Shown here in pieces: positions 15,412-58,421 of a stretch of 64,000 bases of DNA. Origin of the DNA: Planctomycetota bacterium. Lineage in GTDB: Bacteria > Planctomycetota > UBA1135 > GCA-002686595. The stretch is from NCBI GenBank assembly GCA_947484275.1, contig CANKOY010000017.1, positions 1-64,000 on the forward strand, given 5' to 3'. A program made the position numbers and the translations under genes. Numbering within the stretch: position 1 is the stretch's first letter; each line of letters opens with the position of its first letter. Below the pieces are notes generated by a model. It was not told the DNA's origin and made no database searches. It saw only the letters and a list, made by a program, of their open reading frames with translations.

Positions 15412-15580
15412 GCTGCCCGCCTTTCGCGGAGCCTTCTCGGGCGTTCGTCCGCTCACTGGATCGCTCCTGCCGCGCGCAGTGTAGACCACGGCGGCCGCCC
15501 AGTTGAGCGCGCCACGGTATGGATTTCGAACAAGCGCAAGGCCCCGGCGACGCGGCCGGCCGGAGGGCGTCGTGGATCGA

Positions 15581-17002: not shown

Positions 17003-17008
17003 GGCCAC

Positions 17009-17064
17009 GACCATAGCGGATGGGTGAAGGAACGGCACAGTTCCTTCACCCATCCGCTATGGTC
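17009..17064. promoter_or_regulatory. Perfect 25 bp inverted repeat with a 5 nt spacer, in the 70 bp divergent intergenic region between the M64 peptidase and epimerase genes. Candidate operator site.
   Basis: gaccatagcggatgggtgaaggaac GGCAC agttccttcacccatccgctatggtc. The two arms are exact reverse complements of each other. The palindrome covers nearly the whole gap between the two start codons. Confidence 0.5.
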
Positions 17065-27823: not shown

Positions 27824-29731
27824 ATGAACAAACGCTTCCTCACCCTGGGCGGCCTGGGCATCGCGGCCGCAATGCTGATTTCGATCAACGTGGTCTCGAA
27901 CGCGACCCTGCGCTCGACGCGCGTCGATTTGACCGAGGACAAGCTGTTCACGCTCTCAGCCGGGGCAATCAACATTCTCGGCAACCTGAAAGAGAGCGTG
28001 ACGCTGCGCCTGTACTACTCGCACAAGGTCGGCGGCGACATCGCCTCGATCGCGAAGTATGCGCAGCGCGTCGAAGAACTGCTGCGAGAGATGACGGTGC
28101 ACTCCAAGGGCAAGCTGACGCTCGAGGTGATCGACCCCGAGCCCTTCAGCGAAACCGAGGACCGCGCGGTGCAATTCGGTCTGAAGGGCGTGCAGGTCGC
28201 GCCGGGCCAGGACCTGTTGTACTTCGGCCTCGCGGGCACGAACACGACCGATGAAAAGGACGTGATTCCGTTCCTGCAGCCGGACAAGGAGGCGTTCATC
28301 GAGTACGACGTCACCAAGTTGGTTTTCTCGCTGTCGAACCCGACGAAGAAAGTGCTCGGCATGCTCAGCACGCTTCCGCTCGACGGCGCCATGGCCAATC
28401 CCATGACGCGCGGCCCCGGCGCCGAGCCCTGGCTTGTGGTGGAGCAGATGCGCGAGTTGTACGAGGTCAAGACCGTGCAACCGAACGCGAAGGAGATTCC
28501 CTCCGAAATCAGCGTGTTGATGGTCGTGCACCCCAAGGCTCTCGGTCAGGAGACGCTGTTCGCCCTCGATCAGTACGTGCTCGGCGGCGGGCGCCTGATG
28601 GTGTTCGTCGATCCGTTCTGCGAAGCGGATCAACCGCCCCAGGACCCGAGTGATCCTATGTCGCAGTTCAAGGCCCAGCGCGGCTCGGACCTCGGTCTGC
28701 TGTTCAGCGCCTGGGGCGTGCAACTGGAAGCGGGCAAGATCGCCGCGGACCTCGACAACTCGTTGCGGGTGCAGTTCTCGAACCGCTCACGGGATGACTC
28801 CGGAAAATACGTGGTCTGGCTCGACCTGAATTCGAGCACGCTCTCCAAGGAGACGGTGGTCACCGATCAGATCAAGTCCATGAATCTGATCTCGGCTGGC
28901 GTGCTCTCACAACCGGCGGAGGCGACAACCAAGTTCACGCCGTTGATTTCCACCGGAGACAAGGCCTCCACGGTCCTGGTGTCATCGGTGCAGTTCCAGG
29001 CGGATCCGAAAACGCTGCTCAATGACTACATGGCGGGCGACAAGGCCCTGACCTTGGCCGCGCACATCACTGGCAATGTCAAGACGGCCTTCCCCGGCGG
29101 ACGGCCGAAGGCGCCGGAGAGCATGGACGAAGTTCCCACACCTGCGCCCGCGGAAGGAACGGTGCTGACGGAATCCAAGTCGCCGATCAGCGTGATCGTG
29201 GTCAGCGACTGCGACATGCTCCAGGACCGCTGGGCCTTCAGTTCACAGAACATCGGTGGCATGCGCTTCGCTTCCCCGGCCAACGGAAACATGGCCTTCG
29301 TCTCGAACTCCGTGGACTTCCTCGAGGGCTCCACTGATCTGGTCAGCCTGCGCAGCCGCGGTAGTTCGCGCCGGCCCTTCGAGGTCGTCGAAGCCCTGAA
29401 AACGGCCGCCGATCAACGCTTCCGCGCGCGCGAGCAGGCACTACTGACGAAGTCCGACGATGCTTCGAAGCGCATCGAGGAACTGCTGAGCAAGCGCCAG
29501 GGCGCCAGCTTCGACCTCCTCTCGGCCGACGTGCAGGTGGAGATCGAGAAGCTGCGCGAGGATCAGCTGAGCGCGCGCAAGGAGCTGCGCGAGGTGCGCC
29601 TCTCGCTAAACAAAGACATCGAGAGCCTGGGCTCGCGGGTAAAGATGATCAACATTGCCCTGATCCCGGCGCTCCTGGTGGCGTTTGCCCTGGGGCTCTC
29701 GCGTTGGCAACGTTTGCGGCGCAAGTCCTAG
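27824..29731 (+). CDS. GldG-like ABC-transporter auxiliary component (COG3225 family).
   Basis: 635 aa with N- and C-terminal TM anchors and a large periplasmic domain. The gene order matches GldG-type auxiliary proteins. Confidence 0.7.
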   Translation: MNKRFLTLGGLGIAAAMLISINVVSNATLRSTRVDLTEDKLFTLSAGAINILGNLKESVTLRLYYSHKVGGDIASIAKYAQRVEELLREMTVHSKGKLTLEVIDPEPFSETEDRAVQFGLKGVQVAPGQDLLYFGLAGTNTTDEKDVIPFLQPDKEAFIEYDVTKLVFSLSNPTKKVLGMLSTLPLDGAMANPMTRGPGAEPWLVVEQMRELYEVKTVQPNAKEIPSEISVLMVVHPKALGQETLFALDQYVLGGGRLMVFVDPFCEADQPPQDPSDPMSQFKAQRGSDLGLLFSAWGVQLEAGKIAADLDNSLRVQFSNRSRDDSGKYVVWLDLNSSTLSKETVVTDQIKSMNLISAGVLSQPAEATTKFTPLISTGDKASTVLVSSVQFQADPKTLLNDYMAGDKALTLAAHITGNVKTAFPGGRPKAPESMDEVPTPAPAEGTVLTESKSPISVIVVSDCDMLQDRWAFSSQNIGGMRFASPANGNMAFVSNSVDFLEGSTDLVSLRSRGSSRRPFEVVEALKTAADQRFRAREQALLTKSDDASKRIEELLSKRQGASFDLLSADVQVEIEKLREDQLSARKELREVRLSLNKDIESLGSRVKMINIALIPALLVAFALGLSRWQRLRRKS

Positions 29732-29747
29732 TTTACGGAGGCACAGC

Positions 29748-31025
29748 ATGAACGCACGCACACTCCAAGTCATGACGATCGTGGCGCTCGGCGCAGCCGG
29801 CGCGGCGTGGTACGTCTCGCGCACCACCAGCTCGAGCGCGGCCAAAGCCGCCTCGAACGGCGCGCTGTTCTTCCCTGAACTGGCGGCGAAGTCTGCCGCT
29901 GTCCAGTCGATCCTCGTGCAGTCCAAGGGTCAGAGCTTCACCCTTCAGAAGCAGGGCGACACCTGGGGAATGACCGACAAGGGCGGCTATGCCGTCAACT
30001 TCGACAAGGTGAAGGATCTGGTGTCGAAGCTCGCCTACTTCGCGGTCCTCGAGAAGAAGACCGACTCACCCGAACTTTTCGGCAAGCTCGAGCTGGAAGA
30101 CGCGGGCGCCGAGGGCGCGAAATCGACGCGCGTAACGCTCTCCGATGCTTCGGGCACGGCGCTCGCCGACATTCTGCTGGGCAAGAACGCCAGCGGCGGC
30201 GGTCCGGGCTTGTCGTCGATGTATGTGCGCCGTCCGGGCGAGAACCAGACCTACGAGGTCAACGGTTCGGTGTACATCGACGGCACGGCGAGCAATTGGC
30301 TCGACAAACAGATCGTCAAACTCGAGCGCGCACGCGTGCACCGCGCCGAAACGCTGCGCGGTGACGGCGAACGCCTGCTGATCTCCAAGGCGTCGCCCGA
30401 TGAAAAGAACTTCTCGGTCCAAGATCTTCCGGCGGGCGCGGAGCTGAAGTGGCCCGGCGTGGCTGACGGAATCGCCGGCGCCATGGAGTACCTGAATTTC
30501 GACGACGTTCAGGCCGCGGGCGCAGTGGATTTTGGCGCGCCGCAGAGTTCCACGATGACCCTGCGGACATTCGATGGACTCGAAGTCACGGTCAAGGTGA
30601 TCGAGCAAGAGGGCAAGTTCTATGCGCAGTTCGGTGCGCGCTTCGATCCGAGTTTGCGGGTCGAGGTGGTGAAGTACGAACTCCCGCAGGTCGGCCCCGA
30701 ACTGCCCGCCACGGACCCGGCGGCGGACCCCGCCGCGGCGCAACCGGTGGAAACTCGCTCCGTGCCCGGCAAGTCCGCGGAAGAGGTCGCCAAGGAAGCC
30801 GCTGAGCTGTCCGAGCGCTTTTCCAAGTGGACCTACGTGCTCCCGGGCTACGCCGCCTCGAACTTCTCCAAGTCCATGGGCGAGATGCTCAAGGAAGTCG
30901 GTCCGCCATTGGGCCCCGTGATCGGAGACGGCGACGTCGACGGGGGCGACGAAGGCGGAATCCAAGACCCAACCGAGGTCCCCCCCGCGGAAGTGCCTCC
31001 CCCGCCCACCGGCGGCGGCCAATGA
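29748..31025 (+). CDS. DUF4340-like protein, the frequent fourth gene of GldA/F/G-type ABC operons.
   Basis: N-terminal TM/signal. Approximately 425 aa periplasmic protein with a Pro/Glu/Asp-rich C-terminus. Its position directly after the GldG-like gene matches the common DUF4340 arrangement. Start taken at the ATG at 29748. Confidence 0.55.
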   Translation: MNARTLQVMTIVALGAAGAAWYVSRTTSSSAAKAASNGALFFPELAAKSAAVQSILVQSKGQSFTLQKQGDTWGMTDKGGYAVNFDKVKDLVSKLAYFAVLEKKTDSPELFGKLELEDAGAEGAKSTRVTLSDASGTALADILLGKNASGGGPGLSSMYVRRPGENQTYEVNGSVYIDGTASNWLDKQIVKLERARVHRAETLRGDGERLLISKASPDEKNFSVQDLPAGAELKWPGVADGIAGAMEYLNFDDVQAAGAVDFGAPQSSTMTLRTFDGLEVTVKVIEQEGKFYAQFGARFDPSLRVEVVKYELPQVGPELPATDPAADPAAAQPVETRSVPGKSAEEVAKEAAELSERFSKWTYVLPGYAASNFSKSMGEMLKEVGPPLGPVIGDGDVDGGDEGGIQDPTEVPPAEVPPPPTGGGQ

Positions 31026-31839: not shown

Positions 31840-33903
31840 TCAGGGCGCGATTTGCGCTTCGAGCGCGTTGGTCAACGTCGCGTTGTTCGGCGCGGCGAAT
31901 CCCTGGTCGCGGCCCCAGAACTGGGTGCGCACTGTGTTGCCAACCACCTGCAAGCCCGGATCGCCCGTGCCGCCGGTGATGAAGGCGTTCAAGTCGAGCG
32001 TGTACACCCCGCTGCAGTCATTGCCCGTGGGATTGCCGCCCGAATTGAGCGCCGACGAGCGGCGAACAGGGCTGGCCACGCACAGCGTGCCTCCGGAGAA
32101 CGGCGCCGCGGCGCGACCGGTCAGGCTGTACATCAAGAGCCCCGGCTTGTTGTTGCGCACGTTCGTGCCGCGGACCGTGAAGCCGCTGCCCGCGCTGACG
32201 GACGGATTGCTGCCGATGAAACCGATCGACGGCGTGCAGCCCAGTGAGTTCACCTTCGGCGTGCAGTACACAACCGGCGGCGTGGTGCAGATCGACGCAG
32301 TGGATGTGTGGAACGCGGTGGGTGCGTCCTCGGGGCTCGACCAGACGATTCCGTTGCTGGCCGTGGTGCCGGTCACGTAGTACTGGAAGGTCGTGTTGCA
32401 GGCCACCGCCGGAAAATTCGCGTCGTAGAGTCCCCCGCCGAGCGCCACCAGGGGCACGCTGATCCAGTTGCCGGTCGTGCGATACCAAAGGCGCTCGGTG
32501 CCAGCGGTCAAAAGGCCCGCCTGGGACTGGTTGATCTGCACGCGCAGGCTGTGTCCCAGGTTGGAAACGGCCGCGGGTTGACCGTTGGGGAACGAAAAGG
32601 TGAGTTGGTGCGCGCCGACCCACCACACGAACAGGCCGCTCTCCAAGTCGGAGCCGGTGACCACGCCACCGGGGTGGAACGGATAGACGTTCCAAAGCCC
32701 GTTGTAGGTCGGGTTGTCGTCCGTGGTGCGCGTGTCGAACCAGGCGATTTCGGGAGGATTGTTCGGATTCTGCGCCAGGTCGTAGACGCGCACTCCGCTG
32801 GTGTACGCGGCCTGGAACAGCTTTGTCCCCAGGGTGTACTCGTTGTGCGGAATGGCCGAATTGCCATTGTTGAAGGAGCCGAGGAACACGGGCGCCGATG
32901 TGCCCAGACCCGAGATGTCAAAGACGTGGTTGATCGTCGGACCGCCGAGGTTGGGCACGTAGAGTTCGTCGTTGAGGTACAGGCGCGACTTGTCGGCGGA
33001 CAGCGTGCACTGATGGCCGTACTGACCGTTCGGCCAGGTGATGCGCGGCGTCACCGCTGTGATGTTGGCCTTGTTGGTTACATCGAGGATATCGACGCCG
33101 GTGTTCGCCCAACCGCCGTTATCGCCGCCGCAGGCGAAGGCGATCTCTTTGCCCGCGAGCGGACCGCTGGTGTAGTTCACCAGGGTGACTTCGTGTGTGT
33201 ACCGAGAGGACCAGGACGCCACGTACAACGGCGCCGCGGGGTTGGGATTCAGGTTGTAGATCCGCAGACCGTTCGAACCTCCGCCGGAGCGATAGAGGTA
33301 TCCGGTTTGAGTGTTGATCTCCATCGAGTGTGTCGCCGCAGGCGACGGGCCCGAGGTAATCGTGTTCACCAGGGTGACGACGCCACTGTCGATGTTCGCC
33401 AGATCGATCACCTGGATGCCGCCGCCGCCCTCGCTCACTGCGTAGGCGTAGTGCGAGAACACGCGCACGTCGCGCCACAGACTGTCTGGTCCCGCGATGT
33501 AGCCGACGTTCACGGTTTGCCCCGGCGCCGTGATCTCAGCGAACCCGGTGCCGCCGTAGAGCCCCATCAATGCGTAGCGCCGACCCGAGGCGGAAACGTA
33601 GCCCCAGCCGGAATTGCCGTTCTGCTGGTTCGCGCCCCAGGTGTTCAGGGGCAGCCACGACAGGAGCTTGACGTTGAATGAACTGAACGGCGACGAACTG
33701 TAGGAACCGGAACTGCCGGGGCCGGCGGGCACGAATCCAGGCAAAGGCGCGCCCAGCGGGCCCAGGGGGCTGTGGTACCCGGGCCCCGTGTAGGGCGCGC
33801 GGCGATCAAGCACCTTTCCGTCGCCATCGTGGGCGCCAACTAGGGCGCCGAGGGTCATGGCAGCTGCCAAGGCGAGGAACAGGTTGCGGGGTGAACCGAT
33901 CAT
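31840..33903 (-). CDS. Secreted LVIVD-repeat beta-propeller protein carrying a approximately 150 aa Cys-rich C-terminal domain of unrecognised type.
   Basis: Signal peptide ([24 protein letters not shown]). LVIVD-like repeats ([39 protein letters not shown]). The C-terminal 150 aa are approximately 65% identical to the C-terminus of the 46741..48726 protein. Confidence 0.75.
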
Positions 33904-45446: not shown

Positions 45447-46661
45447 GTGACGGGCCCGCGGACTCTTTTCTTACGCATCCTCTTGGTGCTCGCACTGGTC
45501 GCGGCGGTGGATGTGATCCTGAGCCTTACCTGGCTCTCGGAGGGCCGGGTCGGCAAGCGCCCGCTGCCGCCATTTGGCATCGAGTTCGACGAGCCGCAGT
45601 TGGCGGTGCTCGCCCGTCTGGAGGCGGGCCTAGTCAATCAGAACAGCGTAGTCGGCTTCGATCGCGATTTGGGCTGGTGCGTGCGCCCCCTTGCTGCACA
45701 CCCCACCCAGCCGATTCGAATCAATTCGCGCGGGCTGCGCGGCGAACGCGAGTACTCGGAACTTCCGCCGCCGGACAAGTTGCGCGTGGCCTGCTACGGC
45801 GATTCCTTCGCCTTCGGAGACGAAGTGGGCGACGAAGCTACCTACGAGTCGTTTCTCGAGCGCATCCAGCCCTCGGTCGAAGCCTTGAACTTCGGGGTGT
45901 CGGCCTACGGCACGGACCAGGCGCTGCTGCGCATGGAGCGCGATGGGATCCTCGGCGCGCGCGCGGTGATCGTGTCACTGCTGTTGGAGAACATCGGGCG
46001 CAATGTGAATCGCTACCGGCCGCTGTGGACCGCGCGCACGCTGTCGCCCTTGGCCAAGCCGCGCTTCGTGCTCGTGAACGATCAGCTGCAGTTGATTCCA
46101 CAGCCCTTCGCGGATGGTCGCGAGTTTGCGCAAGCCGCGCGCTCGGGCGCCGCGCTCGAAATTCTCGCCGAGCACGAGTACTGGCGCGGACGCCCTGAGT
46201 TGTGGACCGGTCGCGCGTCGTCGCTGGGAAGATTGGCCGCGGGTTGGTTCGCTTACCGCGAGCGCGACCCACAGCGTTTGTGGCTTGATCGCGACGGCGA
46301 GCCCTTTCGCGTGACCGTCGCGTTGATCGAAGCGCTCCGCGAACGGGCGCGCGCCCTGGGCGCGAAGGAGTTCCTCGTATTGCTGTTTCCGATGCGCGAG
46401 GAACTGGCGGACTATCGCGAGAGCGGCAAGGCCTACTGGAGCGCCGTGGCCGACGAATTCACTTCGCGCGGAATCGACTGCATCGATTTGGCGCCTGCCC
46501 TGGCGGCCGAAGACCTGCGCTGCGAACAGGATCCGCTGCACCCGACGCTGTTCGTCGCCGCGCACCTGTCGAGCGTCGGCAACCAGACCGTGGCCGTGGA
46601 AATCCAGCGCTGGCTGCTGGACCGCCGCCTGCTGGCCCACGAGGACGTCGAGCGTCGATAA
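45447..46661 (+). CDS. SGNH/GDSL-family hydrolase or acyltransferase with an N-terminal membrane anchor (AlgJ/AlgX/DltD-like superfamily).
   Basis: GTG start. N-terminal TM (LFLRILLVLALVAAVDVIL). ACYGDSFAFGDEV is a GDS(L) block-I motif. Later blocks are present but degenerate. Confidence 0.65.
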   Translation: MTGPRTLFLRILLVLALVAAVDVILSLTWLSEGRVGKRPLPPFGIEFDEPQLAVLARLEAGLVNQNSVVGFDRDLGWCVRPLAAHPTQPIRINSRGLRGEREYSELPPPDKLRVACYGDSFAFGDEVGDEATYESFLERIQPSVEALNFGVSAYGTDQALLRMERDGILGARAVIVSLLLENIGRNVNRYRPLWTARTLSPLAKPRFVLVNDQLQLIPQPFADGREFAQAARSGAALEILAEHEYWRGRPELWTGRASSLGRLAAGWFAYRERDPQRLWLDRDGEPFRVTVALIEALRERARALGAKEFLVLLFPMREELADYRESGKAYWSAVADEFTSRGIDCIDLAPALAAEDLRCEQDPLHPTLFVAAHLSSVGNQTVAVEIQRWLLDRRLLAHEDVERR

Positions 46662-46740: not shown

Positions 46741-48726
46741 TCAAGGGCCAACGATGAACTCGAGCCCGTTGGAAAGCGTCGAGTTGTTCGGGGACGCGAA
46801 GCCGTTGTCGCGACCCCAGAACTGGCAATCCACCAGCGTGCCCAAAACCGTCAGGAACGCCTGCGGGCTGCCACCGAGACCGCCAACGGCGAACGTGTTC
46901 ATGTCGATCGCGTAGGTGCCCGAGCAATCGTTCGGCGGAGGATTGCCACCCGAGTTCAGCGCGGTGGAGCGACGGACCGGCGTGCCGACGCAGCGCAGAC
47001 CGCCTTGGAACGGAACTGCCGCTTGACCACCATTGGTGTAAAGCAAGAGGCCCGGCTTGTTGTTGATCACGTTCGTCGCGGTGACGCTGAAGCCCACACC
47101 GGCCGTCGCGCTCGAAACGCCCGAGGATCCGATCGAGGGCGTGCAGCCCAGCGAGTTCACTTTCGCCGTGCAGTAGACGACCGGGCAGGTGCCCGAGAGC
47201 GTGTAACCGAACGCGGACGATGCGGTCCAATCCGAAAGCCAGGTCCTGCAGGAAGCGCCAGGCTCGAAGCCTCCGCGGTAGGACGCTGGGGTGAAGAATC
47301 CGTCGTTGGGGGCCGAGGCAACGCTGACCATGGCGGCGTTCGCCGGACGCGGGTTGAGCCCGATGACCGGAACCATCGTCTTGCCCCCCTTGACCACGGC
47401 CGGGCCGCGGGTGACCGACACCACGGGCGCGTCAGCGTCCAGGATGCCCGGGATCAGCACGTTGTTGTTGCCCGCACCGAACACTCCAACGGTGGTCGCC
47501 TGGGTGTAGGCCGAGGCGAACGGATTGCGGAAGAAGACGCTGTCGGTGACCTCGGCCAATTTGCCCGAGGTTTGCACCTGGTAGAACGCTGCCGGATTCG
47601 CCGGATCATTGGCATGGGCCGGGACTGCATTGAAGTCGGTCGTCCAGGTGTTCGCCCAGCTCAAGGTCCCATTGAATCCGTAGCCGTTGGCGCCATCGCC
47701 ATCTACGTTGTCGAACTTGACCAGCTCCTCGCCGAGGTCCATGAAGATGCAGTTGCGGTACTGAGCACGAGCGTTGTCGCGCCAGGCCGTTCCATGGTCA
47801 CCGGCAACCGGCTGGCCGATCACCGTGAAGTTGTAGATCGTCGTCGTGGTCACGGGCTGCCAGTTGGAGTCCTCGGCGCCGTCCACCTCGAAGCAGTTGT
47901 CGCCGACGCCCGAGCCCTGGGCCGCGTTCAGGCTGTGGCCTTGAACGATCAGGCCAAACTGCGCCTTCCCGCGCCAACCCTGGTCGACGTCGAAGGAGTC
48001 GTCACCGATGTTCCAGATGCTGATGTACTTCAGGCCGACGGTCCCGCCCCAAATCTCGATGCCGTCGTCGACGTTGTTCATGATCTCAACGTGATGGATG
48101 TCCGTGCCACGGCCGATGCCGCCGAGGGACAGACCGTTCAACTCGTTGTTCAGCCCGACGACCTTGCCGCCGTAGCGCAGCGACAGATAGCTGATCGTGC
48201 CGCTGTCATCGTCGTCGTTGCCCCCGCCGTAGCGATCCGTCGAGGGCCCGTTCACGAGGCCTTCCATGTCGGCGACGTTGCTGGCGCTCGGGACAGGTGT
48301 GTTCGTACCAATGGCGTTTTCGGAAATGAAAGCCGCGCCCATGATCGTGAGATTGCCCCACTCGTTGGCGGACTCGCGCCACGTTCCGGTCTGGGGGTTG
48401 CCGCTGATCCAGGTGGCCTGGTCGGCCGTGGAAGTCATGATCACGGGCTGGGTGCGCGTGCCGTTGACGAAGATCTGCGCGCCCTTGCACACCGCGAGGC
48501 TGCCGCCAAGGTTGGTCTGGCTTGCGATGACGGTGCCCGGCTCGATCGTCAGTGTTGCGCCGGGCAGCACGTAGATCTGCTGCTGCAGCTTGTAGGTGTT
48601 GTTCGCTGTCCAGGTCGTTGAAACAGCGATGTTTGCGGTCACGAGGATGTCGGCGGCCTGGGCGGTCGAAGCAAGGCCGGCGCAAAGCAGGGCGGGAACG
48701 GCGGTTCCCTTCAAGAGGCGTCTCAC
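46741..48726 (-). CDS. Secreted right-handed parallel beta-helix protein carrying the same approximately 150 aa Cys-rich C-terminal domain as the LVIVD protein.
   Basis: GTG start at 48726 with an AGGAGA RBS 7 nt upstream. Signal peptide [22 protein letters not shown]-terminal [30 protein letters not shown] is typical of beta-helix glycosidase/lyase-like proteins. The C-terminal 150 aa are approximately 65% identical to those of the 31840..33903 protein. Confidence 0.75.
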
Positions 48727-49059
48727 GGTTGGCTCTCCTTGGAGTCGGATGGGGATCTCCGCGCAGGCCAGGGAGACTCCCCGGCGAAATGCTGCACGTG
48801 CGGGGGATGCTAGAAGCGCTTTGTGCATGGCCCGTGAAGCGACAGTGAAAGTCCGCCGGGAAAAACGACCGCGCCAGAGCACAGGATCAGGGCCCAGCAT
48901 CCAGCGCGAACCCCTGCGGACCGCTGGACCTTGAGAGCGTGATCGCGCCGCCAGCGCACCTTTCCGCCTGCCGGACCCGAGAGAAACGACACCGGATGAC
49001 GCGCAGGAGGCTGCGCGCTGTGAACTCCTCTCGAAAAGGAGTTGTGTTCGAAGGCTGGG

Positions 49060-50469
49060 TTAGCGCTGAGACTTGGAAAGGCGCTCGACCTGCTCGAGGT
49101 AGCGCGCAATGTCCTCGCGCGGCTTGAGTTCCTGCGTGCGTCGCAACGGCGCAAGTGCGTCGCTGTACCTGCCCATCCCCACGAGTACCTGCGCTTGACT
49201 GATCAGGGCCTGGGGCGCGTAGGCATCCAGGCTCGCGGCGCGCTCGTAGTAGAAAATCGCGCGGTCCGGTTGGCTGGTCCGCGAGTAGTGCTTGGCCAAG
49301 AGCATCAATGCCTCGCCATCCAGTGGATCGACCTTGACGATCTCCTCGAGCACGCTCGCAGTTTCCTCGTTCTCGCTACCGTCGGCCATGGCAAGTCGCG
49401 CGTCGAGTTTCAGCAACTTCTGGCGCTCGATCGGCTCGATTCGTCCCGCCCAGGAGCTGTTGATGCGCCCCAGAACTTCGCGCGCCAGTTGCGGCGTCCC
49501 GCGCGAGGCGAGAATTTCCGCGGCTCGCATGGGGCGGGAGATGGGTTGATTCACATCGACATCGATCGCGCGCAGGTAAGCCCGGGCGGCGAGGTCCAGC
49601 AGGTTTTCCCCGACGTAAATGTCGGCGAGCGTGTGCGCGCTGTCGACGCTCGCAAGCCCCAGGCGATCGATGGCCTCAAGGTTGACGGCAGCCTTCAGCG
49701 GTTGCTTCAGCCCAAGATAGGCGTGTGCCTGCAACAGCCAGAATTCTGCTTTGTCCGGATAGCGCGCAATCAGGACCTCCAATAGCGAGGCGCAATCCTC
49801 GAACTTGCCCTGCCGAAACACACAGCGCGTGAGCCCCAGACGCCACTCGGTGTTTTCGGGCTGCAGCAACAGCGCATTGCGGTACGCCGCCTCCGCGGGC
49901 TGATAGTCCTGCTTGGACGAATACGCGAATCCGAGGAGCCCATAGGAATAGGCGTCTCCGCCACCAAGCTCGAGCATGCGCACGAACGCGGCAATCGCCG
50001 GATCGTATTTGCCCTGACGCACCTGGATCAGCCCCAAGTTGCGCCAGGCACGGCGAAAGCTCGGGAACTTCTTGATCGCCTTGTCGTAGCTCTCGAGCGC
50101 CGAATCGAAGTTTTCCTGCTGGAAATGAATGCCGGCGAGGGTGAAATCAAGGATCGCCGAGCAATCCGGCTTCATGGCCTTCTTCAGCGCCGCCTCGGCC
50201 TTGGCCAAGTCGTTCGCCGCCATCAATGGACGCACCTTCTCGAGAATCCCAACCTCATCAAGGGTGACGCGCGGCTCGATCTCGGCGTTGACTCCGTAGG
50301 CCGCGACGAACTGACGCTGGAACGTGGGATCGTTCCAGATCGATTCGATAGTTCCTCGGGCGCTCTCCTGGGCGGCCGCGCCAGCTGCCAGGATCAAGCC
50401 CGCCACGCAGGTCCCCAGGATTGTGAAGCTGCGCCGTGCTCGGCGCCCATTGCTCAAGGTTTTCATGTT
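49060..50469 (-). CDS. TPR-repeat periplasmic protein of the TonB system cluster (TtpD-like).
   Basis: Signal peptide (MKTLSNGRRARRSFTILGTCVAGLILAAGAAAQ). Multiple TPR-like repeats. It is the last gene of the minus-strand TonB cluster. Confidence 0.7.
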   Translation of the reverse strand, partial: NMKTLSNGRRARRSFTILGTCVAGLILAAGAAAQESARGTIESIWNDPTFQRQFVAAYGVNAEIEPRVTLDEVGILEKVRPLMAANDLAKAEAALKKAMKPDCSAILDFTLAGIHFQQENFDSALESYDKAIKKFPSFRRAWRNLGLIQVRQGKYDPAIAAFVRMLELGGGDAYSYGLLGFAYSSKQDYQPAEAAYRNALLLQPENTEWRLGLTRCVFRQGKFEDCASLLEVLIARYPDKAEFWLLQAHAYLGLKQPLKAAVNLEAIDRLGLASVDSAHTLADIYVGENLLDLAARAYLRAIDVDVNQPISRPMRAAEILASRGTPQLAREVLGRINSSWAGRIEPIERQKLLKLDARLAMADGSENEETASVLEEIVKVDPLDGEALMLLAKHYSRTSQPDRAIFYYERAASLDAYAPQALISQAQVLVGMGRYSDALAPLRRTQELKPREDIARYLEQVERLSKSQR

Positions 50470-50477
50470 CAAGTTCC

Positions 50478-51185
50478 TCAGTCGGGTTGAAAGCGCATGG
50501 TCAAGCGCATCCTCGCGGGGACACGTTTTCCACCCTGGAGCCGTGGCTCGAAGCGCCACTGGCGAATGGCCTCCAGCGCGGGCCGCTCAAAGGCGGGGTG
50601 CGAGGACTCCGCGACCTTGGGAGTGTTCACGCTGCCGCTCTCGTCGAGATTGAAGATCAGCGTGACTTGTCCGTCGATGTTCTTGCGACGCAGTTCGGCG
50701 GGATACAGCGGCGCCACTTGGAAAATGGCGCGCGCACTTTGATCGAATTCGGACAAACCGAGCGCGGTCTCGATCGGGTCGCCGGGACCGCCAGCCTTGC
50801 CCGTGCCGCCGATGCGTCCGCCTGAGCTGAAACTGAGTGCGGCGCCGAAGTCAGAGCCGCCACCGGTTTGGTTCAGCGCCGCCTCGATCGCGCTCAGGCT
50901 GGCGGCCTCCAGCGCCGGAGCGCTCTCCTCGAGGCTGGGAGCGCTGCTTTGAGCCACGTCGATCGGGTCCGGAGGACTCTCGGTTTCTTGCTCGAGTTCC
51001 TGCTCCTGCGGCACTTCCTCCTGTGGCTCCTCGGGTTTCTGCGCTTCGACTGCGCCGAGCAATTCCACTTCCTGCGTGGTCGCAACGCTGCTCTCGCCCT
51101 GGCCGAACAACAGACCACCGAACAGCAGGATCCCCAAGTGGAGCAGCACTGCCCCCACGATTCCGAGTCCCCAAGCGACCTTCAC
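50478..51185 (-). CDS. tonB: Energy transducer TonB.
   Basis: N-terminal TM. Pro/Glu-rich spacer (EEPQEEVPQEQELEQETESPP). C-terminal TonB domain (NIDGQVTLIFNLDESGSVNTPKV...RMRLTMRF). Overlaps exbD by 4 nt. Confidence 0.85.
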   Translation of the reverse strand: MKVAWGLGIVGAVLLHLGILLFGGLLFGQGESSVATTQEVELLGAVEAQKPEEPQEEVPQEQELEQETESPPDPIDVAQSSAPSLEESAPALEAASLSAIEAALNQTGGGSDFGAALSFSSGGRIGGTGKAGGPGDPIETALGLSEFDQSARAIFQVAPLYPAELRRKNIDGQVTLIFNLDESGSVNTPKVAESSHPAFERPALEAIRQWRFEPRLQGGKRVPARMRLTMRFQPD

Positions 51186-51604
51186 TTGCGCTCCGTGTTG
51201 ATGCCGACCTTGGCGATTCCGATCCGGCGAACTTCGTCGAGGACGGCGACCACGTGCTTGAAGTTGGCGCCGCCATCGCTGTTGATCATCACCTTGGGGT
51301 CCTTCGAAGTCGCCTTGAAGGTCTGCAGCTTGAGGGGCAGTTGGGCCAAGGTGATCTTCTCCTTGTTGAAGAAGACGTCGCCCTTCTCATTCACGCTCAG
51401 CGTGACGGCCTTCTCCATTTCCTGCTGATCGCCGAGCGACGCCGCAGTGGCCGCCGTGGGTAGCGCGACTTGCACGCCCTCGTTCTTGGTCATCGAGAGC
51501 GAGACCATGATGAACGTGGCCAGCAGGAAGAAGATGATGTCGATCAGCGGGATGATCTCGATCCGCGCCCGCTTGCGTGACTGGCTGCTTCTGGAACGTC
51601 GCAT
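51182..51604 (-). CDS. exbD: Biopolymer transport protein ExbD/TolR.
   Basis: 140 aa. IPLIDIIFFLLATFIM is an ExbD N-terminal TM. Periplasmic ExbD domain. Confidence 0.9.
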   Translation of the reverse strand: MRRSRSSQSRKRARIEIIPLIDIIFFLLATFIMVSLSMTKNEGVQVALPTAATAASLGDQQEMEKAVTLSVNEKGDVFFNKEKITLAQLPLKLQTFKATSKDPKVMINSDGGANFKHVVAVLDEVRRIGIAKVGINTERK

Positions 51605-51606
51605 GG

Positions 51607-53028
51607 CTAGGTGGTGGCCTGGGGCGCGATTTCAGCCGCGGCATTCCCGTGGGGATGAACGAGCAACTCGAGCTGCGTGGCAGCGGACTCGATTTCATGG
51701 CCGGCCTCCTCCATCTTCGTATTCAGGAAGTTGAAGGGGATCAGAGCCGTGATCGCGATGCCCAGGCCGAACGCGGTCGCGATCAGCGCTTCGGCAATCC
51801 CGCCGGTGATCGCTCCGGGCGCGCTGAGCTCGCCGCCGATCAAGGCGAAGGAACCCATCATGCCCACCACCGTGCCCAACAGCCCGAGCAACGGTGCCAG
51901 GGTGATCACCGTGTCGAGAATCGGAATTCCGCGCCGGAAGCGCTTGAGCTCCTGAGCCTGGGCGAAGAACAGCGCGTTGGCCAGGGATTGCTCCTGGTGT
52001 CCGAGCGCGTAGCCAAGGGCACGCACGAGGTAGAACTTGCTCTCCCTGCCGATGCGAATCGCGGACTCGATATCGCCTCGGTTGACCGCGGCAAAGAAGC
52101 TCTCCAGTGCCGCTGGATCGCGCTTGATTCGTTCGCGCATCAGGAAGATGACGCGCTCGAGCACCGTGCCCAGGGCGAGGATCGATGCCAATAGCAGCGG
52201 CCACATGATCGGCCCGCCCTTCTCGAAGATGTGGAACAAGTTCGTGCGCTGCACCAGGGCCTTGAGCGCGCCGCCGCGCGACGGATCGAGCGGCATGAAC
52301 CCCTCTCCGCTGTCCACGAGCGACAGCAGCCCTGCCTGCATCTCACCTTCGAGCGGACGAATCAGCGGACGGCTGGAACCGGACTGGGGCACGACGAGGC
52401 CCGCGGCGCCGCCGCCGTCGGAGCGAAAAAGGGCCACCGGACCGAGCAGGGCGAACTGACCGCGGGACACCGCACCCAGCAAGTCGACTCCGACTCCCGG
52501 GAACCGCATGCCGCCGACCGCATCGAACAACCGTTGCAGCGACAGATTGGCCAGCTCGAGCTGGATCGCGAACTTCTGCGGCATGGAAAGCGCGCTGTTC
52601 TCACCGGCCTGCTTGGCCCGGTCGATCGCCTCCTGGCAGTACTGCAATTCGCAGACGTTGATCTTGGACTCGAACGTGCGCGCGTACTCGTCCAGCAGGT
52701 TGCCCACATAGGTGAACTCGTCCTGGCGCGACTTGATCTCCGAGCGCAGTCCGGGAAGATCCAGGTTGCCCTGATCCATCAGGCGCGTGACGCGCTCGTG
52801 CTCGCGGCGCAATCGAGTCAGCTGCTCCTCGGCGACAGTCAGGTCCTGGGCCAGGGGCAGTTTCTCCCCGGCAATTTTCTCGCGCAGTTGATTGAGCTCA
52901 AGAATGCTGATGTCGAGCTGGGCCTTGGCGGACCCCGCGAGCTGATCGATGGTGCCTTCAGCCGAACTTTGGGCAGCGGCGGGCAGTGCGAGCAGCAGAG
53001 CCCAAAGTGTGATCGTCAAGAGTTTCAT
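51607..53028 (-). CDS. MotA/TolQ/ExbB-family proton-channel protein with a approximately 250 aa N-terminal periplasmic extension (TtpC-like).
   Basis: Signal peptide (MKLLTITLWALLLALPAAAQS). Long coiled-coil periplasmic region. C-terminal 3-TM MotA_ExbB domain (LGLLGTVVGMMGSF...GIAEALIATAFGLGIAI). Confidence 0.85.
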   Translation of the reverse strand: MKLLTITLWALLLALPAAAQSSAEGTIDQLAGSAKAQLDISILELNQLREKIAGEKLPLAQDLTVAEEQLTRLRREHERVTRLMDQGNLDLPGLRSEIKSRQDEFTYVGNLLDEYARTFESKINVCELQYCQEAIDRAKQAGENSALSMPQKFAIQLELANLSLQRLFDAVGGMRFPGVGVDLLGAVSRGQFALLGPVALFRSDGGGAAGLVVPQSGSSRPLIRPLEGEMQAGLLSLVDSGEGFMPLDPSRGGALKALVQRTNLFHIFEKGGPIMWPLLLASILALGTVLERVIFLMRERIKRDPAALESFFAAVNRGDIESAIRIGRESKFYLVRALGYALGHQEQSLANALFFAQAQELKRFRRGIPILDTVITLAPLLGLLGTVVGMMGSFALIGGELSAPGAITGGIAEALIATAFGLGIAITALIPFNFLNTKMEEAGHEIESAATQLELLVHPHGNAAAEIAPQATT

Positions 53029-53921
53029 TGGATCCTCACCGGCAACGGCACGAAGGCCGGAGTTTGCTTGCCCTGGAGGATTTCCAGTGCGTTCAAAACG
53101 TCCTTGGCCAGGGCAGCCGAGGGTTTCCACGCCCAGCCATCAGCAGTGGGCGTGCCGACGCCAGCTTCGCCCGAGGCGCTGACGTAGTAGCCCTGGGCCA
53201 GGCCCACGTACAGCGCACGGACTTCCGAAGGCCGCCCATTGGCCAGTTCACGCACTTCGTAGCTGACCGTGATCTCGCCGTTCTGCTTGTTGACCTCATT
53301 GAGGATGCCGAGCACGTTTTGAAAACGCTCCGCAACACTGACCCGCGACTCGGCCGTGTCCGCGGGGACGCGCTGGGTCAAGGGCGAGAGCTTCCCTTGC
53401 ATCGGCTCAGGCAATTGCCGAACCAGGCGCAGGATCCTCGACTCCATCTCGCCCACGGACACGGCGAGATTCGAGCCATCGGCCTTGAGAAGGTCGTTCT
53501 CGGCAACCAACTCCGCGCGCTTCTTGTCCGCCTCGGCCACGCTGGCCTCGGCCTGCTTGATCTTCTCCTCGAGGAGCGCGACCTCGCGCTGGACCAGTTC
53601 CAGTCGGCTGACCAGGATCTCGCGACCCTGCTGCCAGTCATTGCGTTCGTGCGAGATGATCTGCTGGGTTTCAATCCACTTGGTCAGGGTCATGCGCGTT
53701 TCCTCCAGCGAGGGTGCAGATCGCGGATCGTCGCCGCTCACCGCTGACTCGCCAGGCGCCCCAATCCCCGGCGTGGGCCCGGCGAAGCTGCCGATCGAAA
53801 CGACCGAGCAGGCGGCGGCTCCGGTGAGGAACCGGCGCAATCCCCCTCGCGGGCGCGCTGCCTTGGCGCGGCGCGGCGGGCGTTCTTGGGGTGAACAGGA
53901 GTTCGTCATTTGCTTATTCAT
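53025..53921 (-). CDS. DUF3450-family periplasmic protein (TtpB-like) of the TonB2-type cluster.
   Basis: Coiled-coil-rich secreted protein of about 300 aa, positioned directly upstream of the long ExbB-like gene as in Vibrio ttpB-ttpC. There is an ATGA overlap with the next gene. Confidence 0.55.
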   Translation of the reverse strand: MNKQMTNSCSPQERPPRRAKAARPRGGLRRFLTGAAACSVVSIGSFAGPTPGIGAPGESAVSGDDPRSAPSLEETRMTLTKWIETQQIISHERNDWQQGREILVSRLELVQREVALLEEKIKQAEASVAEADKKRAELVAENDLLKADGSNLAVSVGEMESRILRLVRQLPEPMQGKLSPLTQRVPADTAESRVSVAERFQNVLGILNEVNKQNGEITVSYEVRELANGRPSEVRALYVGLAQGYYVSASGEAGVGTPTADGWAWKPSAALAKDVLNALEILQGKQTPAFVPLPVRIQ

Positions 53922-53974
53922 GCGTCAGTTCGCTGGTTCGTTTGCGATGTGTGGATCGGTGCAATGTCGATGAT

Positions 53975-56900
53975 TCAAAGTGCGATGGTCGCGGTGAGGC
54001 TCAGCGAGTATTCGATTCCCCTGGAGTAGGAGCTCTTTTCCACGTCTCCGCCGATGTAGGGCGAGCGATAGACCTCCTCGATCGAAGGGTCGGTGAGGTT
54101 CTTGGCCTGGAACTGCAGCTTGAAGTACTTGCCAAGACGCTGTGAGACGCTCAGGTTCAGAGTGTCGTACCCAAGCGCGTAGGCGTTCGGCACGAAGTTG
54201 CCCAGGGCCTGCCCCGCGCCGGCCACCAGCGTGTCGCCTTGGATGGTGTAGAACAGCGCAATCTGCGTGTCAGTCTTCGCTATGTCGTAGGTGACGAAGA
54301 AGTTGCAGAGGTACTCAGGCGCGTTGGTCATGTCGCGCGAGCGCATCGGCGCCTGGATTCCCGGCAAATTGAAAGCGGCGGCTTCCGCGGCCGGCAGGAT
54401 CACTTCAGATTCGATGAGCGTGCCGTTGGCGCCGACCGTCAAGCCAGCGAAGGAATCCGAGAGTACGCCGATGTCCTGGCGGAGTTCCAATTCGAAGCCA
54501 GTGAGCTCGCCCTTGGGATAGTTGATCGGCGTGGTGTATGTGAAGCCGGCAAGTCGCTGCACGTACTCGATCGGATCGCGAATGTCCTTCTTGAACCAGG
54601 AGCACGATACGAGCCCGCCTTCATAGGGCACGTAGTCCGCGCGCAAGTCGTAGTTGTCGAGCGCGCTCATTTCCAGCGTCGGCTCGCCGATGAAGATCGG
54701 GCCGCCCGCGTATTCCTGCTGCAGGATTGGCGTGAGTTCCTTGAACGTCTGGCGCGCGACGGTCTGACTGAAGGAGCTGCGCAGGGTCCAACGCTCCGCT
54801 GGTTCGTAAACCACACCGATCGACGGCAGCAGGTCGTCCTGTCGGAAGGAAACGTCGCCATCGCCCTGCTGCATGGACACCGGGGCCGTGGCGCCGGGCG
54901 GAATCCAGGTCGCGCTGGATTCCGGATCGTTGGCGATGTCGAGCCTCGTGGATTCGGCGCGCGCGCCTCCGATGACGCTCCAGCGCTTCGAAAGCGGCAT
55001 GTCGACCATGGCATAGAGCGCCTTGATGTCCTGCGTGGCCCGATAGTCGACGTCGAACAGTGACTCGGTAATCGGATGGCTCTCGGCCGGAAAGCTCGCG
55101 CTCCAGAACTCGTCGAACTCCCCTACGAAAAACGCGCCTGCGTCGCCGAAGTTGCTGAATGTGTCCTGATCGAACCCACGTTTCACTGAGTCGTCGAACA
55201 GGCCGACCTTCACGTAGCCGGAGTCTGCGGTCCATTGCTCGAACGGGAAATTGAGATTGATCGAGTACTGGTCGCTCTCCTCGTTCACCGACTTCCATAT
55301 CCGCTGAAAGTTCCCCAGGTTGAAATTTGCAGCCGGGAAGTACGGAAACCACGTAGCCGGCGTCGTGGAGGGCGGCGTGAATGGCGGCACGCCCGGATCA
55401 AAAGACGTGGCGTGGAAGAGTGCGCCGAACACCCGCTTGTCGGGCTGATACATGTCGGCCGTCGAATGGGACGCGGTCCAGCTCAGCTCCGGCGCCTTGA
55501 ACCGAAAGCTGGATCCGACGACATAGTCCTCGACGTCGAGGCTGTGCCTGCCCCCCAGCTGCAGCGTGCTCGTCGAGCGTTCGGTGTACTCGAGGGTTTC
55601 GAGGCGCAGGTGCGGCGCCGCATCGAGTTGATTGGGTTGGTTGCCGTTCCCGGTCGGGTTGTTTGGGTCGTAGCCAGGGAAAAAATATTCCTTGCCGCGG
55701 GTGTCTTGCGCGAGCGTCGCTGTGTCGCGCGCGTTGCGTGTGTACAGGTAGGACAGCCCGAGGAAGTTGCGCTCGGTCTCGATGCCGAGGCTGGCGAGAC
55801 CGCCCCAGGTCACTGACTGTGAACCTTGGACCACGTCGAAGAGCGAGGTCTTGAAGTTGCCATCGCCCGGCGTGCCCTGGTTCGTCTGCGGCACCATTCC
55901 CGCGCCCGGCGTCTCGACCCAGAGCGAATCGTCGCGACCGTCGTCGTGGAAGGAGCTCGAGCGCTCATAGAACAGGCTGGCGATGCCGCCGACCCTCACG
56001 CCGTTGTCGAAGGTACGTGCGTTGCCGGCTGTGAAGGACCATTTGTGGTCTGTGGGAGCTGTCCCTTCTGAAACTCCCGCCGCACCGTCCCAGTTCGAAC
56101 CCAGGTTCTGGAGCTGCTTGTCCCGACCGCCATCGTCGAGACCGAAGAAACTCAGGCCGCCGCCGCGGTACGTCAGGAAATCGTCGCGACCGGTGAGCCC
56201 GGGGCTGTAGGTGTACTGGGTCTTCAGCTGGAAAATCGGCTCGTCCGGCAGGCCCTTCAGGATCACGTTCACTGCGCCGCCTGAGGCATCGCCCTGCTGA
56301 TCTGGCGTGAAGGTCTTGCTGACCTGAATGCTGCTGATTACGGCGGTCGGGAACTGGTCGAGCTCCACGGCGCGCTTGTCCTCGTCCGCCGAGGGCAGGC
56401 GCACGCCGTTCATCTGGGAGTTGACATAGCGATCCGGCAGTCCGCGGATCACTGCATACTTCCCGCCTTGCACCGAAGCTCCCGCCACGAGCTTCAGGGC
56501 GGTGGCCGCGTCCCCGGCCCCCGCGCGACTCATCAGCTCCGATCCGATGGAGTCCATGAGCGCCGGGCTTTCGAAGCGCATGCGCAGGAGCGCAGCCTCG
56601 GAGCCCGCGTCGGGCTGCAGCAGATCGCGGACGATGTACTCGTCGAGTTCGGTGAACTCACCGTTCAGTTCGACGTCTACGTCGGCCAGTTGCCCAGCCG
56701 TGACCAGCACGTCCGCGCGCACCTGGCGGTAGTAGCCCTCCTTGATGAAGATCAGGGTGTAACGGCCCGCGGGAATCTGCGGGAAGACGAAGTTGCCCTC
56801 GCCTGTGCTCAGCGCCACCTGGCCGGTCTCGACGATCGTGATGCTCGCGCCAGCGAGAGGCACGTCGAAGTCCTTGTCGCGCACCAGGCCCCGGATCGAG

Positions 56901-56983
56901 CCCGAATCCTGCTGCGCAGACGCCATGACACTGAGAGAGACCATTGCTCCGAGGGTCAGCCAGCGGGATGAACTTCCTTTCAC
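53975..56983 (-). CDS. TonB-dependent outer-membrane receptor with an N-terminal carboxypeptidase-regulatory-like domain.
   Basis: 1002 aa. Signal peptide. CarbopepD_reg-like start (SGSIRGLVRDKDFDVPLAGASITIVETGQ). Plug domain and a 22-strand barrel-sized C-terminal region rich in aromatic/Gly beta-strand signatures. Confidence 0.9.
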   Translation of the reverse strand: MKGSSSRWLTLGAMVSLSVMASAQQDSGSIRGLVRDKDFDVPLAGASITIVETGQVALSTGEGNFVFPQIPAGRYTLIFIKEGYYRQVRADVLVTAGQLADVDVELNGEFTELDEYIVRDLLQPDAGSEAALLRMRFESPALMDSIGSELMSRAGAGDAATALKLVAGASVQGGKYAVIRGLPDRYVNSQMNGVRLPSADEDKRAVELDQFPTAVISSIQVSKTFTPDQQGDASGGAVNVILKGLPDEPIFQLKTQYTYSPGLTGRDDFLTYRGGGLSFFGLDDGGRDKQLQNLGSNWDGAAGVSEGTAPTDHKWSFTAGNARTFDNGVRVGGIASLFYERSSSFHDDGRDDSLWVETPGAGMVPQTNQGTPGDGNFKTSLFDVVQGSQSVTWGGLASLGIETERNFLGLSYLYTRNARDTATLAQDTRGKEYFFPGYDPNNPTGNGNQPNQLDAAPHLRLETLEYTERSTSTLQLGGRHSLDVEDYVVGSSFRFKAPELSWTASHSTADMYQPDKRVFGALFHATSFDPGVPPFTPPSTTPATWFPYFPAANFNLGNFQRIWKSVNEESDQYSINLNFPFEQWTADSGYVKVGLFDDSVKRGFDQDTFSNFGDAGAFFVGEFDEFWSASFPAESHPITESLFDVDYRATQDIKALYAMVDMPLSKRWSVIGGARAESTRLDIANDPESSATWIPPGATAPVSMQQGDGDVSFRQDDLLPSIGVVYEPAERWTLRSSFSQTVARQTFKELTPILQQEYAGGPIFIGEPTLEMSALDNYDLRADYVPYEGGLVSCSWFKKDIRDPIEYVQRLAGFTYTTPINYPKGELTGFELELRQDIGVLSDSFAGLTVGANGTLIESEVILPAAEAAAFNLPGIQAPMRSRDMTNAPEYLCNFFVTYDIAKTDTQIALFYTIQGDTLVAGAGQALGNFVPNAYALGYDTLNLSVSQRLGKYFKLQFQAKNLTDPSIEEVYRSPYIGGDVEKSSYSRGIEYSLSLTATIAL

Positions 56984-57113
56984 TACGATTCGCCTGTTCC
57001 GACTCGCGCGGGCTGTCTGGCAAGATTCAACGAGTCTCCGATCAGCGCCATGTGCAGCGAATATGAGAAACAGGTGAAGACGCGCGCGCCGCGCGGAGAC
57101 ACTGCCCCGAAGG

Positions 57114-58421
57114 TCACCAGGGATTCCCCAGTCCGTCGCAGACTTGAACCAGGCGCGCCCGAAGCGCTTCGTCGGGCTCCACGTTGCAGCGGGCCATCGA
57201 GCAGCAGATCGCCGCCAGGTCCTCGGCCCGCGGACGTGAGTTTGGATTCGTGAGCGACTCCTCGAGCGCCGTGCGGTAGTGCCTCAGCGCTTCGCTCTCG
57301 TGGCCAGCCAGGTGGAATGCCTCGGCCAAGGCCAAGACCACATCGCATCGATCTATGTCATTGATCTCACCGCGCCGAGTGGCGTAGGCGGCAACCTCGC
57401 GATCCAACAATTCCCGCGCGCGCACCGGGTCCCCAGCAGCGTGGCGCAGGCCAGCGAGTTTCGCGCCCATGGCGATGCCATCTTGCGCCGTCCAGGCGCC
57501 CTGATCGGCCAGACCCTCGGCCTCCGCCACAAGCTCGAGCGTCTTCACGAAGTCCTGTCGATCCGCGGCACGGCGAGCCATGTCCGCAAGGCCTTCGATC
57601 CGCACGAACAGTGGCACGCGCGTCCAACCCGCGCGCATCGTGACGCCGAGCTTCGCCGCGCGCTCGGGATCGTCGCGCAATCGATCGAACAACTCGGCGC
57701 AGATCGCCAGGGCGCTACGGGCCTGATCGAAACTGCCGTTGGCGAAGAGCTGCTCCACCAGGAGGATGTGAGAGTCCAATTCAGCTCCACTGGCAGCGCC
57801 GGCGCGCGCGGCAAGCAGTACGCCGACCTCCGCCTCGCCCAGTCCCTGCCCGTGGCGCGCCGCCTGCTCCGGCTCGCCGAGCAAAGTGTAGGCACCAGCG
57901 ATGCGCGCCAGAATGCGCTCCTTTTGCCAGGTCTGGGAGCCCGTGTCCTCCTCGGTCACGGCTCCCAGGGGAACGAGCAGATCGACGACCAGACCCAGAT
58001 AGTGCCGCGCCTTTTCGCGCTCGCCGCGCTGTGCTAGCCGGTATGCGTAGTTCGCAGTTGCCAGTCCGCGGCGCCACCCTTCCATCTTTTCGATGCAGCG
58101 CACGGCCAGCAGGTCTTCGTTCAAGGCGATGCACGTCGAGACCACACTCTCCTGGATCCGAGCGCGATTCCTTGCGTGGGGAACCGTCGGGAAGGCACTG
58201 GCCGCCGTGAAGGCGACGTCAAGAAGGAAGGCATGGGACACCGACCGGGGCCGGGCCTGAGTCGAAGGCGTGGATCGGGCCAGCGCCGATTCTGGTTTTG
58301 CAGCAGATGCATCGGAGTCGCAGGCGCAAGCGAGCGCGATCGATGCCACAAGTGCGAGGCATCGAAGCGCTGCGGCGTGGTGGCTCAGCGAAGATGCGGT
58401 GGAAGTGTGCTGGATCATCAT
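57114..58421 (-). CDS. Hypothetical alpha-helical (TPR-like) lipoprotein.
   Basis: Possible lipobox (LACACDS). Helical repeat-like content. No recognisable domain. Confidence 0.35.
   Translation of the reverse strand: MMIQHTSTASSLSHHAAALRCLALVASIALACACDSDASAAKPESALARSTPSTQARPRSVSHAFLLDVAFTAASAFPTVPHARNRARIQESVVSTCIALNEDLLAVRCIEKMEGWRRGLATANYAYRLAQRGEREKARHYLGLVVDLLVPLGAVTEEDTGSQTWQKERILARIAGAYTLLGEPEQAARHGQGLGEAEVGVLLAARAGAASGAELDSHILLVEQLFANGSFDQARSALAICAELFDRLRDDPERAAKLGVTMRAGWTRVPLFVRIEGLADMARRAADRQDFVKTLELVAEAEGLADQGAWTAQDGIAMGAKLAGLRHAAGDPVRARELLDREVAAYATRRGEINDIDRCDVVLALAEAFHLAGHESEALRHYRTALEESLTNPNSRPRAEDLAAICCSMARCNVEPDEALRARLVQVCDGLGNPW

Follow-up and report, generated by a model that had tools for sequence, protein, structure and literature searches.

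The C-terminal domains (CTDs) of the type IX secretion system (T9SS) of Bacteroidota (TIGR04183/TIGR04131) are lineage-restricted beta-sandwiches of roughly 70-100 residues that stand at the C-termini of many unrelated Sec-exported proteins, with dozens or more cargo genes per genome and with 'choice-of-anchor' proteins among their passengers. Type I dockerins (PF00404), which act with cohesins, consist of duplicated Ca-binding helical segments and are likewise usually C-terminal, single and non-catalytic on diverse exported proteins. The same logic of one tag on many proteins, with alternative tags on orthologues, underlies the PEP-CTERM/exosortase, LPXTG/sortase and GlyGly-CTERM/rhombosortase systems, whose short sorting signals of about 20-35 residues combine a motif with a transmembrane helix and a basic tail. 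Here we describe a domain of comparable organization, encoded at the 3' end of a gene for a predicted exported beta-helix protein in 64,000 nt of a Planctomycetota bacterium (assembly GCA_947484275.1, contig CANKOY010000017.1, positions 1 to 64,000; hereafter, the window), and demonstrate its modularity, family size, C-terminal position, fold, exchangeability and synteny. An earlier note, made from the sequence alone, had singled out the end of this gene as the second copy of a Cys-rich C-terminal module.

The window CTD shares the above characteristics of T9SS CTDs, but it is about 145 residues long and belongs to Planctomycetota, and neither TIGR04183 nor TIGR04131 was matched in an NCBIfam scan of the whole protein (E <= 0.1) or of the CTD alone (E <= 1). 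No T9SS machinery was noticed in the window, which was scanned only in part, and no genome-wide search for SprA/Sov, PorV or PorU was made. Dockerin-like tails fill the same position on orthologues of both CTD-bearing proteins of the window (P0162; P0443 and others); however, the CTD is an all-beta sandwich with no known cohesin-like partner, and it gave no Pfam match to PF00404 at E <= 1. Unlike the short sorting signals, it is a folded, globular domain of 145 residues that ends with LEFIVGP in a beta-strand and has no hydrophobic helix, and none of the NCBIfam sorting-signal models matched the protein or the CTD. The CTD would be a modular C-terminal targeting domain, and it belongs to none of these three groups.

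Results

A tblastn search of the window with the whole beta-helix protein (661 aa) returned one further locus only, 31843-32343 (-), which is 57.6% identical across 170 aa at E 7e-49. This match lies at the 3' end of a gene for a choice-of-anchor B protein (31840-33903 (-), 687 aa), whose CTD (31843..32277 (-)) was also recovered by BLASTP and by a hidden Markov model (HMM) of the class of tails, termed class A below, to which both copies belong. When the two full proteins were compared by BLASTP, residues 496-661 aligned to residues 521-687 (58% identity, E 4e-52), and outside this shared C-terminus only noise was found, all other segments having E > 2. Since the beta-helix and choice-of-anchor B proteins align nowhere but at the CTD, the module has been shuffled, and the earlier proposal of a second copy on a different protein holds; similarity through the whole proteins, the contrary outcome that the note had envisaged, was not seen. 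The choice-of-anchor B passenger matches TIGR04312 over residues 70-426 (224.7 bits against a cut-off of 100, E 2e-66), a family named for its co-occurrence with alternative C-terminal sorting signals. HMMs for this and the related classes of tail revealed no CTD in the window beyond these two. Pairwise alignment of the two copies, as the note had suggested, showed 65% nucleotide identity, with non-synonymous divergence (dN) of 0.37-0.40 and synonymous divergence (dS) of 0.9-1.0. The resulting dN/dS of about 0.4 indicates that selection acts on the CTD, and by this measure of divergence the copies represent paralogues of long standing that purifying selection maintains. A dS of about 0.9-1.0 excludes that they were duplicated, or made alike by gene conversion, in recent times.

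The exchangeability of the module was apparent from homologues of the beta-helix passenger. Its N-terminal 509 residues retrieved 2,495 homologues at E <= 0.001, the best 120 of them at E <= 1e-225. These 120 orthologues are 60-78% identical up to an invariant WTASxAFG(F/Y)T, where the conserved part stops, and their tails diverge ~5-10 residues later. As assigned by regular expressions, class A, that of the window CTD, occurs on 10 of the 120, class A2 (NYCTAGTTTNGC) on 10, class A3 (YCT..NSTG) on 6, class B (FCFGDGTGTACPCGN) on 21, class C (WTDLG...PFKGG) on 22, class D, an unrelated module of ~88 aa, on 8, and class E, another module of ~140 aa, on 7, with 16 orthologues having no or a short tail and 20 left unclassified, one of these being dockerin-like (P0162) and some visibly of class A2, B, C or D. 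Profile-profile comparison with hhalign gave 100% for A-A2, 97.9% for A-A3, 96.2% for A-B, 77.6% for A-C and 91.5% for A2-C. On these profile scores, classes A, A2, A3 and B are homologous and class C is probably homologous to the class A group; classes D and E showed no homology to A/A2/A3/B/C in the same type of comparison. Homologues of the choice-of-anchor B passenger carry class A (30), A3 (34), B (26) or A2 (7) tails, and 23 are without a class match, many of these being dockerin-like (e.g., P0443, with PF00404). Since both passenger families show these tails, two independent families use the same alternative C-terminal modules. Eight of the alternative tails were searched against Pfam and NCBIfam at E <= 1, and nothing meaningful was found.

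The CTD belongs to a large family. With the last 152 residues as query, 158 proteins were found in which the domain stands at the very end in every case and the N-terminal parts vary; all named matches among these are from Planctomycetota metagenome-assembled genomes (MAGs), and for the family as a whole almost all named matches belong to this phylum. When 1.84 billion cluster representatives were searched with a profile, 6,106 proteins reached E <= 1e-3, of which 1,923 reached E <= 1e-30, and 147 of the 150 best representatives (98%) have a single match that ends 0-3 residues from the last residue of the protein. Among the matches listed, at least 552 copies were confirmed in species-representative genomes. 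The best 80 loci come from five Planctomycetota MAGs, and 21 of the 80 (e.g., L007, L010, L011 and L047; MAGs JAYUOR01, JANMRV01, JAYUUV01, DATHET01 and JADJQU01) contain tandem runs of two or three genes, each with its own class-A CTD. In L062, the gene that comes after a class-A gene is of class A3, placing both classes in one genome. According to Pfam, the passengers of 111 representatives include FG-GAP, DUF4394, SBBP, P_proprotein, Laminin_G_3, legume lectin, C1q, CHRD, subtilase and ice-binding domains, and a simple hydrophobicity heuristic recognized 100 of 116 complete N-termini as signal-peptide-like.

Rare exceptions to the terminal arrangement are P0339, in which a signal peptide and the CTD are followed by 250 more residues; P0341, in which the CTD is internal and followed by Cys/Asp-rich repeats; and P0115, a protein of 170 aa that consists of a signal peptide and the CTD alone. 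Two of three 'stand-alone' CTD genes resemble split genes, and the neighborhoods of the three contained nothing recurrent that would point to a machinery. The CTD had no match in Pfam or NCBIfam at E <= 1, neither it nor the whole protein, each used as a profile, had one among PDB sequences at E <= 1, and we found no description of the domain in the literature.

The AlphaFold2 model of the CTD is a beta-sandwich with a predicted local distance difference test (pLDDT) score of 96.7, all-beta apart from two short helices, and fold comparison with this model gave generic matches and no specific structural relative. The invariant columns of the domain are C10, K13, N15, C19, P21, G27, G58, C70, G85, C92, G94, Q126, W128 and D131, and the first six of these invariant residues form a motif directly at the junction with the passenger, where C-[TV]-A-K-x-N-S-L-G-C-x-P is extremely conserved. 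Among 229 near-full-length domains, C10, C19, C70 and C92 are each present in 98-100%. In class A3 the equivalents of C10 and C70 are kept (98% each) and those of C19 and C92 are both lost (0%), a pattern of joint retention and loss that suggests disulfides C10-C70 and C19-C92. The optional Cys125 and Cys151 were considered as partners in a third disulfide, which was rejected because they do not co-occur (odds ratio 1.1, p 0.68). Class C is almost without cysteines and lacks the junction motif. The description of the module as Cys-rich was thus overstated: the window CTD does have five cysteines in ~150 aa (six with that of the linker), but since class C has almost none, this is not a defining trait.

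The gene itself occupies 46741..48726 (-), within the longest minus-strand open reading frame over the region (46741-48900 (-)), and encodes 661 aa plus the stop codon, comprising a signal peptide, the passenger, a linker and the class-A CTD. Its true start is the GTG at 48726-48724 (-), 7 nt downstream of the Shine-Dalgarno sequence AGGAGA (48734..48739 (-)). The same start and the same 661-aa product are found in a public gene call (ENA ERZ27280196, contig k141_3286239, 67 kb), from which gene coordinates were transferred by mapping that contig onto the window (3 mismatches in 21,986 nt). AGGAGA, a spacing of 7-8 nt and GTG are kept in all four orthologous loci (the window and L082-L084, near position 10001), and the rest of their 170-335-nt upstream spacers is unalignable. 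The start codon and ribosome-binding site named in the earlier note are therefore supported by the sequence, the public call and the orthologues alike, and the N-terminal peptide it quoted is present in the protein.

Residues 1-24 (48655..48726 (-)) form a Sec-type signal peptide, as judged from the sequence, the hydrophobicity heuristic and a low-pLDDT N-terminal helix in the model, with cleavage predicted after AQA (next residues AD). The passenger extends over residues 25-509 (47200..48654 (-)), ending with the WTASxAFG(F/Y)T motif. It is followed by the linker LSGTCPV (residues 510-516; 47179..47199 (-)), placed by mapping the junction in orthologues and by lower pLDDT at ~500-520; the boundary check proposed earlier thus located a ~7-residue linker at the junction of passenger and CTD. 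The CTD (residues 517-661; 46744..47178 (-)) contains QFWGRD and reaches the last residue of the protein. The span first singled out, 46741-47200, consists of the stop codon and the last 152 codons, i.e., the ~7-residue linker and the CTD. The AlphaFold2 model of the full-length protein has a pLDDT of 91.8 and a predicted template-modeling score (pTM) of 0.85. Scans of the window or locus for Rfam families, tRNAs, promoters and terminators gave nothing relevant.

The passenger is a right-handed parallel beta-helix of the pectin-lyase fold, and PF28492 (Beta_helix_4) is a precomputed match for the exact protein of the window and for all 120 best homologues. No PDB sequence matched it, and its identity to any solved structure is 7-16%. 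The pectate-lyase-like beta-helix of the earlier note is thus correct as to fold, but no enzymatic assignment follows from it: in contrast to Pel9A, alginate lyases and epimerases, phage tailspike depolymerases and NosD, the passenger has no assigned catalytic residues. It further differs from pectin-lyase-fold proteins in its unusually high conservation among homologues (60-78%) and in the setting of its gene, a locus for TonB and a TonB-dependent receptor rather than a recognized polysaccharide-utilization locus. The beta-helix also contains a conserved poly-aspartate segment (residues ~175-185; window ~48160-48190 (-)) and several DDG/GDD turns, which together suggest binding of metal (Ca).

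The beta-helix gene is the last of a conserved locus, the upstream part of which (49060..58421 (-), from gene calls and Pfam matches on the same contig) encodes a 435-aa protein without assigned function (57114-58421 (-)), a TonB-dependent receptor with CarboxypepD_reg, Plug and barrel (53975-56944 (-)), DUF3450 (53025-53693 (-)), ExbB (51607-53028 (-)), ExbD (51182-51604 (-)), TonB_C (50478-51185 (-)) and a TPR protein (49060-50466 (-)). In three further genomes, where the beta-helix orthologues have three other types of tail, the same gene set stands beside them. Since the receptor, ExbBD and TonB are kept as neighbors whatever the tail, the arrangement fits a protein that lies at the surface and works with an outer-membrane transporter. 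In the window and the three orthologous loci, DUF3450, MotA_ExbB, ExbD, TonB_C and TPR genes lie in one directon beside a TonB-dependent receptor, the same series as in the TonB2 clusters of Vibrio (TtpB/DUF3450, TtpC/ExbB, ExbD, TonB2, TtpD). TtpB2 of Vibrio vulnificus, encoded by the first open reading frame of TonB2 systems, is a DUF3450 protein (PMC6957404). The present loci differ from those of Vibrio in belonging to another phylum and in having two additional conserved proteins, the beta-helix protein and one of 412-435 aa. The latter is encoded directly downstream of the beta-helix gene in the three other genomes (L082, 12089-13330; L083, 12239-13531; L084, 11905-13143), and these three copies share 55-60% identity; its homologue in the window, 38-42% identical to these, is the 435-aa protein upstream of the receptor, the gene having relocated in the window to the opposite end of the locus. 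This protein matched no solid Pfam family, a faint TPR_7 match appearing in one locus only. In L082, on a contig of complete-genome scale, a single call of 1389 aa (5596-9765), with ExbD, TonB_C and TPR among its Pfam matches, lies between the DUF3450 and beta-helix genes, the place of the ExbB, ExbD, TonB and TPR genes in the other loci; it represents a genuine fusion or an artifact of gene calling.

On the other side, the beta-helix gene adjoins a convergent gene (45447..46661 (+)) outside the conserved locus, which had been described as a membrane-anchored SGNH/GDSL protein and taken as a hint of extracellular polysaccharide processing. Its product has an N-terminal membrane anchor, and a GDS block is visible (CYGDSFAFG), but SGNH models matched only below their cut-offs (PF13472, 28.5 bits against 32.9 and over profile positions 1-70 only; NF047475, 36 against 325). 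The synteny comparison with the three other genomes showed that this gene is not conserved and that the TonB locus is conserved instead. The hint of polysaccharide processing, coming from a convergent, weakly supported gene with no counterpart beside the orthologues, is not supported, and a functional tie between this gene and the CTD gene was rejected on the same synteny comparison. Elsewhere in the window, genes for a GldG-like ABC_transp_aux protein (DUF7088) and a DUF4340 protein (27824-31022 (+)) are convergent to the choice-of-anchor B gene and lie ~0.8 kb from its CTD-encoding 3' end. An outer-membrane translocation/assembly module is encoded by TamA (POTRA and Omp85; 9245-11323 (-)) and TamB (11323-15489 (-), 1389 aa), and a gene for an M64 peptidase (15584-17053) adjoins it.

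Discussion

Because orthologues of both passengers carry the CTD, one of its sister classes, a dockerin-like module or nothing, we favor the reading that the CTD serves as a lineage-specific surface-anchoring or targeting tag of exported proteins in Planctomycetota, and give it an even chance of being correct. Under such a mechanism, the beta-helix protein would be exported by Sec with an autonomously folding beta-sandwich of ~145 residues fused to it through the ~7-residue linker. The CTD would then attach to an envelope component shared by many such proteins, either a protein scaffold or a surface glycan, and so retain its passenger at the cell envelope, which would keep the beta-helix protein beside the TonB-dependent receptor of the same locus. 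Members of the superfamily are swapped among the C-termini of unrelated exported proteins, and on orthologous passengers the sister classes replace one another and dockerin-like modules.

The CTD could also be the cargo signal of an undescribed, dedicated T9SS-like system of outer-membrane translocation and attachment in these Planctomycetota: recognition would take place in the periplasm, the CTD would serve for passage through the outer membrane, and cleavage at the conserved junction motif would then leave the cargo attached to the surface. Several properties agree with such a role: the strictly C-terminal single copy in 147 of the 150 best representatives, the dozens to hundreds of cargo genes with signal peptides per genome, the beta-sandwich fold, the lineage restriction and the very conserved, probably disulfide-closed motif exactly at the passenger/CTD junction. 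The host is also diderm, and Omp85/TamA, TamB and a TonB-dependent receptor are encoded in the window. However, no candidate machinery was found, no genome-wide search having been made, and there is neither sequence nor specific fold likeness to T9SS CTDs. The domain also occurs at the N-terminus (P0339), internally (P0341) and by itself (P0115), class C lacks both the junction motif and the cysteines, and dockerin-like modules, which serve for binding and not as secretion signals, are found on the same passengers. We consider this account rather unlikely. A bolder version, in which the whole A/A2/A3/B/C superfamily would be the cargo tag of a new sorting pathway for outer-membrane translocation and surface attachment, specific to a large clade of Planctomycetota, analogous in function but unrelated to the T9SS and with the C-x-A-K-x-N-S-L-G-C loop as its recognition or cleavage site, we regard as unlikely.

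Quite improbable, in our view, is a role as a carbohydrate-binding module (CBM), lectin- or CBM-like, that steers passengers to external polysaccharide. A beta-sandwich with a conserved aromatic/polar cluster (K13, N15, Q126, W128, R130 and D131) would suit it, as would the occurrence of CBM56 and a porphyran-binding CBM among the weak fold matches, the capacity of the CTD to stand alone or elsewhere in a protein, and a passenger whose fold is that of polysaccharide lyases and hydrolases. Yet most passengers are non-enzymes (FG-GAP, beta-propellers, P-domains, DUF4394), the fold matches are generic, no Pfam CBM was matched at E <= 1, and the SGNH neighbor behind the idea is not conserved; moreover, CBMs typically vary in position and copy number, whereas 98% of the best 150 representatives have the CTD once and at the end. 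The generic fold, together with the 16 of 120 beta-helix orthologues that have no or a short tail, would suit a passive structural, oligomerization or stabilizing domain that became common through lineage-specific expansion. Such a domain is hard to reconcile with the strict terminal position, with invariant surface-type residues under purifying selection, with the occurrence on unrelated passengers in more than 6,000 representatives, and with exchange for dockerin-like modules and homologous classes in two passenger families, and we hold it to be highly improbable. As for the two genes of the window being whole-length paralogues, BLASTP refutes this, and one N-terminal part is of the Beta_helix_4 family and the other of TIGR04312, leaving that explanation with virtually no chance.

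Little is understood of how Planctomycetota bring their many large extracellular proteins to the outer membrane and across it. A CTD tag carried by thousands of proteins with predicted export would label what an uncultured clade common in soil and activated sludge secretes or displays at its surface, and it would provide a handle, as pull-down bait or as a query for phylogenetic profiling, for the anchoring or secretion partner. Most members of the family are at present nameless or 'hypothetical protein', and a defined family would improve their annotation. The beta-helix protein, with its 60-78% conservation in a locus for a TonB2-like system and receptor, would be an uncharacterized surface component of TonB-dependent uptake.

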